DNA of 64,000 nucleotides from Acidobacteriota bacterium. GTDB lineage: Bacteria > Acidobacteriota > UBA6911 > RPQK01 > JAJDTT01. The notes beneath the pieces are model-generated. The model was given only the letters and a program-made list of their open reading frames with translations, was not told where the DNA came from and did not search any database. The DNA lies in assembly GCA_965263035.1 (NCBI GenBank), contig OZ253580.1:1120001-1184000 (forward strand). Direction: 5' to 3'. Below, piece after piece: positions 5,576 through 8,902 of this stretch. Position 1 is the stretch's first letter. Every line of letters begins with the position of its first letter. The position numbers and the translations under genes are program-made.

Positions 5576-5674
5576 AGGCGCATGCTCCGGACTCCGGCCG
5601 GGAGTCGACTCCAGATCGGGGTCCCCGGCACGACACGGGGCTCTTGCCAGGAAGGCATTCCCAGCCTGGACTGG

Positions 5675-5833
5675 GAGCCTACGCGGCAGAAATTGATCTA
5701 CTGCGAAAGCGGTAGAATCGGTCCATATTTCCCCGATTTCTCGGCGAATAGAACAACTATGCACCTCCAAATCGAGAAAATCTAGCCTCGATTCCCCGCT
5801 TTCTCGCTACGATCATTCCTACCGCGCAGACTC
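5675..5833 (+). mobile_element. MITE family A, copy 1 (159 bp)
   Basis: Near-identical to 18981-19139, 38521-38679 and 49484-49642; termini GAGCCTACGC...GCGCAGACTC; flanks CTGG/CTAG. Confidence 0.9.
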
Positions 5834-5885
5834 CTAGGAGGCTGTCCGAGAATGGAGCCGTCACCGACGCTTGTCTGTTTAAATA

Positions 5886-6050
5886 GGCCCGTCCGGGTCG
5901 CTCATGAGCGACCCGGACGGCGGTGGCTGGACCGTACCGACGCGGACTGTTAGGAACCGTTTGGGAGTGAGGTCGGCCACCGTCTTTCCCGATGTCCTGA
6001 ATGGATACAAGGGCATCAAGGCCCGAATGACAAGCACAGGAGACAGGAAA
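5886..6050 (+). ncRNA. IS110 bridge RNA (5' hairpin, target-binding loop, donor-binding loop)
   Basis: 32-bp perfect palindrome 5889-5920; stem CGGTGGCTGGACC/GGTCGGCCACCG enclosing ACCGACGC (5936-5943) and GGGAG (5963-5967); second stem enclosing ATGGATAC (6001-6008) and GACAAG (6029-6034); all four guides match the junction sequences. Confidence 0.88.
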
Positions 6051-6051
6051 G

Positions 6052-6996
6052 ATGAAACAGCATACCGTAGGCATCGACATCTCGAAAGCGCACCTGGACG
6101 CGCACCGGCTGGCCGACGGCCATTCCGCCCAGTTCGACAATGACCCGGCCGGCTTCCGGGCGCTGATCGATTGGATCGGAACTCCGGTCGAGTGCGTCGC
6201 CTACGAGGCCACCGGCCCCTACCACCGGGACCTCGAGGAAGCGCTGTCCAAAGCGAAGCTACCGTTGGCCAAGGTGAACCCCTGGCAGGCCCGATGTTTC
6301 GCCCGGGCGACCGGGAGCCGTGCCAAGACCGACGCCGTAGACGCTCGGAAACTGGCCCAGATGGCCGCCAGCCTGGATCCGCGCCGGACCCCGGCCCCGT
6401 CCAAAACGCAACGCCGGCTCCAGGAACTGCAGTCGGCCCGGGACGCGCTGATCCGCCAGCGCACGGCCCTGCTCAACCGCCGCCAACAGCTCCGCGAACC
6501 CTTGCTCAAACAGCAGAACCAGACCCAGATCAACATGTTCGAGCGCCACCTGCGCGCCATCGACCGCAAAATGCAGCAGCTGATTGCGGCCGACGAGGCG
6601 CGGGCCCGCAAGTTGGAGATCCTCACCTCCATTCCCGGGATCGCGGCCACCACCGCCGGTCTGCTGGCCGAGATGCCCGAGCTGGGCGCCCTCAGCGGCA
6701 AGGCCGCCGCCAGTCTGGCCGGGCTGGCCGCCGTTCCCCGCGAGTCCGGGACTTGGCAGGGCCGGGCGTTCATCCGGGGCGGACGGGCGCGGGCGCGACG
6801 GCTCCTGTACATGCCGACGGTGGCCGCCCTGCGCTGGAACCCCGACTTGGCCGAGGTGTACCGGAGGCTGAGAGAGCGCGGCAAGCCCGGCAAGGTGGCC
6901 CTCGTCGCCGTCATGCGCAAGCTCATCGTCCTGGCCAACACCCTCGTCCGGCAGGACCGCACCTGGTTGCCCGTAGCGCCCCGAGCGACCTTCTGA
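6052..6996 (+). CDS. IS110 family transposase/recombinase
   Basis: RuvC-like DEDD (GIDISK, YEATG, KTDAVDA); C-terminal SIPGI, RESG (catalytic Ser), GK..KVALVAVMRKL. Confidence 0.96.
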   Translation: MKQHTVGIDISKAHLDAHRLADGHSAQFDNDPAGFRALIDWIGTPVECVAYEATGPYHRDLEEALSKAKLPLAKVNPWQARCFARATGSRAKTDAVDARKLAQMAASLDPRRTPAPSKTQRRLQELQSARDALIRQRTALLNRRQQLREPLLKQQNQTQINMFERHLRAIDRKMQQLIAADEARARKLEILTSIPGIAATTAGLLAEMPELGALSGKAAASLAGLAAVPRESGTWQGRAFIRGGRARARRLLYMPTVAALRWNPDLAEVYRRLRERGKPGKVALVAVMRKLIVLANTLVRQDRTWLPVAPRATF

Positions 6997-7384
6997 GGCC
7001 ACGGAGAGACCCCGTGAGGAAAGGGAGCGTGTGGACCCCCTGATGGCCGTCTGTCGAACTTCCGGTCAGGTCTGGCCGGAAGCTTGCTTACGGCCATGAA
7101 AGCTCTTCAGGGCGTATCCGGACCTCCCGGAGGACTGACGTCGACGATCTCAGGCCCCTCGATCCAGTTGATCCGTCCACTCATCGCCCCCTCCACGGCG
7201 CCCGCTGGATCCAGCTCGATCTCCGCCTCACCTCTGGCGGAAGAACGCTCCTCCTAACCCTGTGCCTCTTGGACCGGACAGATCACGTACTAACGACACG
7301 GGATGGAAACACCGATTAGCACCCACCACTTGCAACATGGATACTCCCTAAAATAAGGGGAACAGATCATCAGGAGAGTGTCGG

Positions 7385-8902
7385 ATGCCCCCTCGCTTCA
7401 AAGCCTACCCGAAAGATTACTACCAGAGTCAGCTGTTTCCAGCTAACGTATTCGACTTGTTGCCGGAGGATCACGAGTGTTTCCTCTACCGGGATCTGTT
7501 TCGGCAGCTGGACACGACGGAAGTGGAGGCCCGGTACAGCCACCGGGGTCAGCGGGCCTACGCGCCGCGCCAGATCGTTTCGATCCTGATCTACGCCTAC
7601 AGTCACGGCGTGTACAGCTCGCGACAGATCGAGCAGCGCTGCCGGGAAGATCTCGGCTTCATGTACCTGGCGGGGAGGAACTGCCCGAACTTCCGGGTGT
7701 TGAGCGATTTCCGGAAGGACCGCGGGGAGTTCTTCCGGTCCTGTTTCAAGCAGACGGTGGAGTTGGCGATGGGGCTGGGGCTGGGGCTGGTGAGTTTGGG
7801 ACACGTGAGCCTGGACGGGTCCAAGTTCAAGGCGAACAGCTCGAAGCACAAGGCGATGAGTTACGGACGACTGAAGGAGAAGGAGAAGGAGCAGGAGTTG
7901 TGCGAGGAGATCGAGGCCTTGACCCGACAGGCCGATCGCTGCGACGAGCAAGAGGATCGAGCCTACGCGGAGCGGACCGGGTATGAGTTGCCGGAGGAAC
8001 TGCGCGACAAGCAGCAGCGGTTGCAGAAGATCCGGGAGACGAAACAGTCGCTGGAAGCGCGGGAGGCAAAGCTTCGACCGGGTCGGGAGATCGAGGACAA
8101 GAAGCAGCTCAGCTTTGCGGACCCCGAGGCGCGGATCATGAAGCAAAAAGGGGGGTTCGAGTACGCGTACAACGCGCAGATCAGCGTGGAGGAGACATCG
8201 CAGGTGATCGTGGGTCAGCACGTGAGCCAGCAGGCGAACGATTCCCAGGAGGTGGCTCGGGCGCTGGATGAGATGGAGGAGACGAGCGGTCGGTTGCCGG
8301 AGAAGCTGAGCCTGGACAACGGCTACTATTCGGGAAAGAACCTGCAGGAGGTGTCCGATCGTCAGGTGGAAGCGTACCTGGCGACGGACCGGGGCGAGCG
8401 GCGGGGGAAGGGAGAGCTGGAGGAGAGTGAGCGTCGGCTGGTGAAAGCGGACTTTCGTTACGACGGGGAGCGGGACGGGTTTCATTGTCCCGGCGGCCAA
8501 CTGCTGAGGTTGAAGACCCCCCGCGGCACGGGACAGCGGGTGTATCAGGGGGACATCGAGGAGTGCCGATCCTGTGCCTACTATCGTCGGTGCTGCCGGT
8601 CGAAGTCAGGGGCGGCGCGCACGATCACGAGCGACGGGAAGGAGCCGTTGCGACGGGCGATGAACGAGCGGATGTCGAAACCGGAGAGCCGAGCGCTCTA
8701 CGCGCGTCGCAAGACGATCGTCGAGCCGGTATTCGGGCAGATCAAGAACTCGGGATTTCGGGGATTCGGGCTGCGGGGCAAGGAGAAAGTGGCCGGGGAG
8801 TTCTCCTTGGTCTGCGTGGCGCACAATCTCAAAAAGATCATGCTTGCGGCTCTGCGGGGAGAGGTGTGTCCGGAGTTCGGGAAGCGAGCGGCCTGGGCGT
8901 AA
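7385..8902 (+). CDS. IS1182 family transposase
   Basis: DUF772-like N-terminus (YSSRQIEQ..REDLGFMYL), LDGSKFKAN, YNAQI, LDNGYYS, RKTIVEPVFGQIK. Confidence 0.95.
   Translation: MPPRFKAYPKDYYQSQLFPANVFDLLPEDHECFLYRDLFRQLDTTEVEARYSHRGQRAYAPRQIVSILIYAYSHGVYSSRQIEQRCREDLGFMYLAGRNCPNFRVLSDFRKDRGEFFRSCFKQTVELAMGLGLGLVSLGHVSLDGSKFKANSSKHKAMSYGRLKEKEKEQELCEEIEALTRQADRCDEQEDRAYAERTGYELPEELRDKQQRLQKIRETKQSLEAREAKLRPGREIEDKKQLSFADPEARIMKQKGGFEYAYNAQISVEETSQVIVGQHVSQQANDSQEVARALDEMEETSGRLPEKLSLDNGYYSGKNLQEVSDRQVEAYLATDRGERRGKGELEESERRLVKADFRYDGERDGFHCPGGQLLRLKTPRGTGQRVYQGDIEECRSCAYYRRCCRSKSGAARTITSDGKEPLRRAMNERMSKPESRALYARRKTIVEPVFGQIKNSGFRGFGLRGKEKVAGEFSLVCVAHNLKKIMLAALRGEVCPEFGKRAAWA

Follow-up and report, generated by a model that had tools for sequence, protein, structure and literature searches.

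Durrant et al. (2024, PMC11208160) describe IS110-group elements as having a long left end, in which the guide is located, and a short right end; with the bridge RNA provided in trans, a 22-bp donor is sufficient. ISPpu9 from Pseudomonas putida, in the account of PMC12288879, is an IS110-group element with extra lineage-restricted structured non-coding material, ssr9 (MITEPpu9), 3' of the transposase gene: ssr9 is one small-RNA gene with a copy of the IS end boxes on each side, it forms circles of its own, it is missing in close relatives, and it is not needed for transposition. The IS110-group element described below resembled ISPpu9 in harboring such material 3' of its transposase gene, but it differed from the ssr9 arrangement in having no internal end boxes and in displaying a patchwork of pieces from other IS families.

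The element was found in a 64,000-nt stretch of DNA (the window) from a 6.2-Mb single-contig genome (G000), whose nearest relatives in the genome collection were Acidobacteriota MAGs. All coordinates below are window positions unless another locus is named, with LE and RE standing for left end and right end, respectively. The element, its gene, its right terminus, and the host element that it interrupted were as follows:

5870-7345, plus strand: IS110-group insertion sequence, with the CT core dinucleotide at 5870-5871 and 7344-7345
6052-6996, plus strand: transposase/recombinase gene, 314 aa (Pfam PF01548, E 5.4e-23; PF02371, E 1.5e-15)
7302-7345, plus strand: conserved right terminus, with -35-like TTGCAA at 7330-7335 and donor ATGGATA-CT at 7337-7345
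5835-5869 and 7346-8902, plus strand: IS1182-family element, the left end of which was split by the IS110 insertion (NF033551, 403 bits, E 1.6e-120)
7385-8902, plus strand: IS1182-family transposase gene (NF033551)

Thirteen transposase-bearing copies of the element were present in G000. When these copies were aligned together with their flanks, similarity started at CT-TGTCTGTTTAAAT (5870) and stopped at ...CATGGATA-CT (7345), and the element ends were confirmed because contigs of unoccupied target sites, found in RNA libraries from two studies, joined 5868/5869 directly to 7344/7345. The CT core was found at both junctions in every copy compared, while no terminal or subterminal inverted repeat was detected when the first 40 nt were compared with the reverse complement of the last 40 nt. 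The gene product contained both IS110-family recombinase domains, the N-terminal DEDD RuvC-like domain (PF01548) and the C-terminal Tnp domain (PF02371). With its DEDD plus Tnp-domain recombinase, its CT core at each end, and its lack of terminal inverted repeats, the element was like the IS621-type IS110-group elements of PMC11208160. It was unlike the short-RE organization given there for the group: the transposase stop codon was located at 6994-6996, leaving an RE of 349 nt (6997-7345; estimated as about 350 nt in the initial annotation) next to an LE of 182 nt, and the RE was even longer (about 425 nt) in most copies, the excess being foreign mobile-element material (see below). The group pattern of a short RE, with LE longer than RE, was thus reversed in the window element.

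The sequence comparison was applied to 61 related genomes (G000 counted in). Matches to the RE were found in 11 of them, including all eight other genomes of the genus, and these were mostly RE pieces; a search with the recombinase identified relatives of the element in four genomes of the genus:

G007: recombinase 92-94% identical (aa); RE about 425 nt, like most G000 copies
G004: recombinase 88% identical (aa); RE 312 nt, composed of 6997-7131 plus the palindrome and without 7132-7271 (module B; see below)
G003: recombinase 85% identical (aa); RE 80 nt, interior absent
G001: recombinase 84% identical (aa); RE about 100-105 nt, interior absent, in two intact copies at different sites

Among the relatives compared, the whole RE was common to G007 only. 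In G003 and G001, the reading frame extended a few codons at the point where the G000 sequence departed, and their short REs retained an ISNCY-terminus-like motif. Judged from these 80-105-nt REs of sister elements, the excess length of the RE is apparently lineage-specific. The short REs found in G003 and G001 may be ancestral or may have arisen by deletion; the REs of an alphaproteobacterial outgroup (45%-identical recombinase) were about 165 nt and displayed indels. Matches in G016, a genome marked unpublished, were excluded from all claims.

The LE carried a bridge RNA with the following parts:

5889-6051, plus strand: bridge RNA, recognized from the LE fold and from guide matches to target and donor
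5889-5921, plus strand: 5' hairpin of the bridge RNA in the fold, followed by two stems enclosing large internal loops
5936-5943 (left target guide) and about 5960-5967 (right target guide, placed by eye), plus strand: target-binding loop
6001-6008 (left donor guide) and about 6029-6034 (right donor guide, placed by eye), plus strand: donor-binding loop

The LE fold had a z of -5.65, with 0 of 200 shuffles as good. The 8-mer ACCGACGC (5936-5943) repeated exactly the left target together with the first base of the core, and the 8-mer ATGGATAC (6001-6008) was identical to a sequence of the RE terminus; by eye, GGGAG (5963-5967) was complementary to right target CTCCC, and GACAAG (6029-6034) was complementary to the LE start. 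The IS621 type is likewise described as having an LE RNA in which a 5' hairpin precedes two internal loops, the arms of which match target and donor (PMC11208160). The left target guide varied along with the left flank across the G000, G007, and G004 copies, and three states were recognized (those of the G007 and G004 loci being read by eye from LE sequences): (i) ACCGCCG in the majority of the G000 copies, (ii) ACCGACG in the window copy and those at 653k and 3695k, and (iii) GTCGCCG in G007 and G004, where four intact copies had this guide and three of them displayed this state, while the fourth (L062) had GCCGCCG, with one mismatch. A left guide linked to the flank in this manner is, at the sequence level, the signature of a programmable target guide. 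The premise of the initial annotation that the bridge RNA lies in the LE holds because the target guide changes with the flanks, in addition to the fold and the 8-nt matches to both target and donor.

The opposite tip of the element was strongly conserved. The RE comparison within G000 covered 12 copies (the 13th, c5835k, was fully divergent past about 7000 and was omitted), and none of the 44 columns of the terminus (7302-7345) was variable among them; the terminus was also conserved in G004, G003, and G001. Its donor sequence matched the left donor guide 6001-6008. At the circle junction, read by eye, the order was TTGCAA (7330-7335), a 17-nt spacer, and TTAAAT (5879-5884), and these two boxes would make a putative sigma-70-like promoter on the circularized element; for the IS621 type, an RE -35 box and an LE -10 box that meet on circularization are described (PMC11208160). 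A promoter/terminator scan of the linear sequence 5800-7420, which leaves the circle junction outside its view, gave no site of either kind. The ~44 nt at the RE tip look functional, in agreement with the minimal donors of the bridge-recombinase work.

The RE interior, located between the stop codon and this terminus, was dissected into three pieces:

6997-7037, plus strand: first RE segment, with a hairpin at 7000-7016; origin unmatched
7038-7131, plus strand: module A, with hairpin 7059-7082 inside stem 7043-7050/7090-7097 and a small hairpin at 7117-7131
7130-7309, minus strand: module B, a decayed ISNCY-family 5' end composed of the terminal repeat, the leader hairpin, and the first ~40 codons

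No solitary copies of the first segment were found in G000 at E<=1e-3; about a quarter of its positions differed in L062 of G007 and in G004, where its hairpin was broken, and it was absent from G003 and G001. Module A was found in inverse orientation just 3' of orfB in four IS3-family copies of G000 (NF033516, 244 bits), with or without the ~76-nt palindrome (P), and, in other families, 3' of an IS1111-type transposase gene in G300, in G164, and in four of five metagenome hits; an A-like hairpin was also located 3' of IS3-like copies in G023. Hairpin 7059-7082 was thus part of a module common to IS3-family and IS1111-type elements. Module A was searched for in a phylum sample of 301 genomes and by a metagenome pattern search, and the phylum sample gave matches in only four genomes, G000 counted. 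Metagenome hit L142 was rejected as module A, being an unrelated short palindrome.

Module B shared 143 of 180 aligned bases (79%) with an ISNCY-family element of G007, being aligned to its 5' end (L135, 1292-1504); this element is frameshifted, and its open reading frames matched NF033594 (E 1.3e-19 and 8.8e-56). Its decay was evident from the start codon ATG changed to ATC, a 29-nt gap, and an early stop in frame. The module B peptide matched a relic at 2509k of G000 (E 3e-07), the continuation of which matched NF033594 positions 32-96; the window minus-strand peptide alone had no Pfam or NCBIfam match, and tblastn with the ISNCY-like peptides gave no further copy in G000. Solitary copies of the 170-nt ISNCY-type end were found in several genomes of the genus, and hairpin 7223-7240 was the conserved, covarying ISNCY-family leader hairpin read on the opposite strand.

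The RE interior also varied between copies of the element. P, a near-perfect palindrome, was located between 7107 and 7108 in 9 of the 12 G000 copies, while the copies in the window, at 2494k, and at 3695k contained no P and displayed two different junctions. Besides the 9 IS110 copies, P was found in G000 in two IS3-family copies, in partial form in the solo RE at 4205k, and in diverged form at 2072k; solitary RE fragments were located at 4205k and 5347k. Two G007 copies (L138, G007:C2:4663200-4665700; L064) harbored a ~1.85-kb ISKra4-like element in the RE at about 7305-7313, identified by NF033572 at E 2.4e-29, under the family cut-off, with flanking matches that overlapped by 9 nt. The RE interior is therefore variable and insertion-tolerant, because the presence of P, the junctions, and the ISKra4-like insert differ between copies, and we infer that it is dispensable for transposition. 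Nucleotide diversity among the 12 copies was 0.025 (pi) in module B versus 0.038 at transposase third codon positions, and 6997-7107 had only 2 variable sites in ~111 bases versus ~11 predicted from the third-codon-position density (31/314); this low diversity could reflect a constraint on module A.

An IS can act as a landing site for others, and internal deletion then leaves end fragments. The ISKra4-like element inside the RE of the two G007 copies was like such nested ISs, whereas the debris in the RE of the element was unlike nested relics in that it had become part of the mobile unit and had been copied to 12 or more sites.

The initial annotation had viewed 6997-7260 as a multi-branched RNA of ~250 nt, additional to the LE bridge RNA. 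The pairings listed for it were present: four helices (helix 1, 7024-7030/7245-7251; helix 2, 7031-7036/7175-7180; helix 3, 7038-7043/7107-7112; helix 4, 7043-7050/7090-7097) were perfect Watson-Crick, the fifth (7059-7069/7072-7082) had 10 of 11 with one G-U, and the three small hairpins (about 7000-7016, 7117-7131, and 7223-7240) could be located, with the MFE fold recovering most of the listed pairs. The plus-strand fold (-112.3 kcal/mol, compared with -98.9 on average for 200 shuffles, one of which did as well) was better than shuffles but only modestly so (z -2.61), and the minus-strand fold was alike (z -2.40; 2 of 200 shuffles as good); near-equal scores on the two strands are a better fit to inverted repeats in the DNA than to an RNA specific to one strand. 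The pairings are real, but they are weak evidence for an RNA.

The covariation test of the proposed fold was applied to 17 right ends (13 distinct rows) and 51 pairs: 94% of cells paired, and almost all pairs were invariant. Helices 1, 3, 4, and 5 were broken without compensation in three divergent rows (L062 of G007 and two G004 rows). Two pairs were scored as changed on both sides, both from the G004 rows, and this count was reached by 62 of 500 shuffles; at one of them, columns 42/259, the 3' partner columns of G004 were non-homologous, G004 containing no such module. Helices 1 and 2 bridged the segment of unmatched origin (6997-7037) and the ISNCY relic, helix 3 used the CAGGG that forms the base of P's own 3' arm in full-length copies, and P itself, where present, interrupted this fold near its center. 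The Rfam search of the proposed region at E up to 10 gave, as the best match overlapping the RE, one with E 3.2 and 18.2 bits (gathering score 41.2), and the same search of seven related loci, including P-bearing ones, gave nothing at E<=0.1. With the interior missing from sister REs, the long-range helices without covariation, and no Rfam match, the multi-branched RNA is refuted as a single 250-nt molecule by the very comparison of homologues and covariation that had been suggested as its check, and its interpretation as an accessory or regulatory RNA finds no support in the same observations. The RE is most likely not a dedicated second RNA because close relatives of the element lack the hairpin-rich stretch.

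The RNA-library material was composed of assembled contigs from four runs, which are uninformative on transcription, strand, ends, and level. These contigs spanned the LE, the transposase gene, and the RE, with the RE continuous with the transposase 3' end, and they included P-less X15 and X16 and the P-bearing contig end X17; given this continuity with the transposase gene, the RE may well be transcribed. The summed contig depth was higher for the LE than for the RE, a comparison confounded by an adjacent 168-copy repeat. A plus-strand ORF of 57 aa was located in the RE at 7084-7257.

We consider it probable, at about three chances in four, that this is an IS110-group element whose RE interior is passenger debris of other mobile elements, followed by a functional terminus of ~44 nt. 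The observed part of this reading is the composition of the interior, its homologies, its absence from relatives, and the lack of covariation in the long-range helices. In the mechanism proposed, the guide RNA would be located in the LE, and only the last ~44 nt of the RE would work for the element, supplying the donor sequence to be read by the left donor guide and the -35 box that would meet the LE -10 box on circularization. The ~300 nt between stop codon and terminus would be passenger fragments that entered or were captured in the lineage and then decayed: (i) a segment of unmatched origin, (ii) module A, here without its partner P, and (iii) a broken ISNCY-family 5' end on the minus strand. 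The structured look of the RE would come from the parents' own hairpins, i.e., trailer palindromes and a leader hairpin over a start codon, and the long-range helices would be chance pairing between unrelated pieces. The suggestion in the initial annotation of a captured structured element is borne out as far as captured mobile-element material with hairpins from its parents is concerned, but this material is a patchwork and not a single RNA; likewise, the long RE is indeed atypical of the standard IS110 model, but the departure is explained by insertion. The presence of a long foldable RE in an IS110-group element does not by itself imply a second RNA gene, and here the RE would be a cargo of other elements' ends.

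Not all of this cargo behaved as inert sequence. The alignment of the A+P unit contained 14 sequences from IS110, IS3-family, and IS1111-type contexts, distant genomes among them. In the unit (~165 nt), a hairpin of 9-10 bp preceded a stem of 22 bp, on top of which were three mini-hairpins. The module A hairpin was kept in all 14 sequences. In the P stem, 8 of 22 pairs were changed on both sides, amounting to 27 cells versus 7.9 +/- 2.0 in shuffles (0 of 500 shuffles reaching this count) and 1-6 in slid controls, and 11 of the 14 sequences folded somewhat more stably in the orientation of this element. The window copy kept A only, its P having been deleted. A+P thus looks like a selected structure, whether as RNA or as a DNA hairpin, and, given the P-stem covariation, part of the full-length RE is probably such a structure and not inert junk. 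Tentatively, and with the odds against it, A+P could be viewed as a structured module under selection, one that travels among IS110-group, IS1111-group, and IS3-family elements of Acidobacteriota and settles in their 3' regions, acting as an orientation-tolerant double-stranded RNA processing/termination signal or as a selfish hitchhiker. A covarying hairpin module common to three kinds of IS is a by-product of interest in this analysis, and, if A+P proves to be a processing/termination signal, it would bear on the separation of guide RNA from transposase mRNA.

The same covariation leaves room for the main rival to the debris reading, in which module A, together with P where the copy is full-length, serves the element as a 3' RNA structure, namely an RNase III-type processing site, a terminator, or a stabilizer, and only the rest is debris; such a structure would terminate the transposase mRNA and prevent transcription from running around the circle. 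The compensatory changes in the P stem, the universally kept A hairpin, the low diversity at 6997-7107, the location of the module directly downstream of transposase genes in three kinds of IS, and the greater stability of most sequences in this element's orientation all speak for it. The orientation relative to the upstream gene, however, was reversed in the IS3-family and IS1111-type elements; P was lost in 3 of the 12 copies, including the window copy with its intact transposase gene; the module was absent from the G003 element and from both G001 copies, which occupied different sites; the scan of 5800-7420 revealed no U-tract terminator; the module was rare in the phylum sample; and DNA-level processes can by themselves keep the arms of a palindrome complementary. 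We consider a working A/P structure unlikely.

Far less probable is a hitchhiking small-RNA module in the manner of ssr9/MITEPpu9, i.e., a separate IS-end-bounded unit, possibly regulatory, that the same recombinase would mobilize either together with the transposase gene or alone. ISPpu9 offers the precedent of a downstream small-RNA module that, by the account of PMC12288879, is missing in relatives and unneeded for transposition, and the module described here was similarly lineage-restricted, with solitary RE fragments at 4205k and 5347k of G000. Against this, no second LE-start or RE-terminal motif was found inside the RE at up to 3 mismatches, the solitary copies of A, P, and B were located in other IS types and not at target sites of this element, and the RE contained no guide-like complementarity.

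A relic or second guide RNA in the RE, also raised in the initial annotation and conceivable as the leftover of an IS1111-like downstream-guide arrangement, scarcely deserves credence: although the IS1111-group guide lies in a long RE according to PMC11208160, and although the module-A-bearing element of G300 and G164 has a short LE, a long RE, 12-bp subterminal inverted repeats, and (by eye) a guide-like match to its own LE, an IS1111-type right-end guide is excluded here because 6997-7330 (the last 15 nt, the element's own donor site, being left out of the search) had, on either strand, no match of at least 7 nt to the target or donor sites, left or right, whereas the LE had 8-mers, and because the window element had no subterminal inverted repeat, a feature (7-17 bp) that goes with IS1111-type right-end guides (seekRNA); moreover, its LE already has a full two-loop bridge RNA covarying with targets, and in G300 the A+P unit followed the stop codon and preceded the guide-like region, outside the latter.

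That IS1111-type element (L126 of G300, at about 90-1811; L127 of G164; also L139, L140, and L143) was 86% identical between two genera. It had a short left end, a right end of ~494 nt, and 12-bp subterminal inverted repeats, and its A+P unit was located just past the stop codon, ahead of a region that could pair with the left end of the same element.

P resembled REP/REPIN-like palindromic elements in being a long near-perfect hairpin with compensatory arm changes and a loop inverted between two copies; unlike REP/REPIN, P was not a high-copy genomic repeat in G000. The loop inversion was seen between two IS3-family copies that were otherwise 95% identical (G000:C1 2981641-2981723 versus 1959705-1959787; L122 and L120): the ~40-nt interior of P was flipped between its 21-25-nt inverted arms.

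The target sites of the element differed from those of the IS621 type, being either a CGGCGG...CCGCCG hairpin repeat or, for the subtype in the window, the left end of an IS1182-family element. The majority subtype was inserted between units of the CGGCGG-loop-CCGCCG hairpin repeat (...AAACCGCCG-CT-CCC.TTCGGCG...), and this target was REP-like, as for other IS110-family elements (flanks including window 5855-5869). The window subtype was inserted 37 nt inside IS1182-family left ends (window 5835-5869 and 7346-7384; G000 copies at 653k, 3695k, 4205k, and 1954k); the intact target was seen in uninterrupted IS1182-family left ends elsewhere in G000, the site being the same or different by one base. 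The left target guide of the window subtype was one base (C to A) off that of the majority subtype, and this change fitted the IS1182-family site. It looks like natural guide reprogramming onto another IS, and the single-base guide change together with the insertion into IS1182-family left ends would provide a field example of such reprogramming.

A ~170-nt repeat, forming one end-to-end long hairpin, was located next to the element at window positions 5668-5838. G000 contained 168 copies measuring 150 nt or more (94 on the plus and 74 on the minus strand); the repeat had no Rfam match and displayed very high summed contig depth in the four RNA libraries, which is a poor measure. Its fold was much more stable on the minus strand (-92.1 kcal/mol, z -9.5) than on the plus strand (-59.8 kcal/mol, z -4.7), and this strand gap suggests many G-U pairs and hence a structure at the RNA level.
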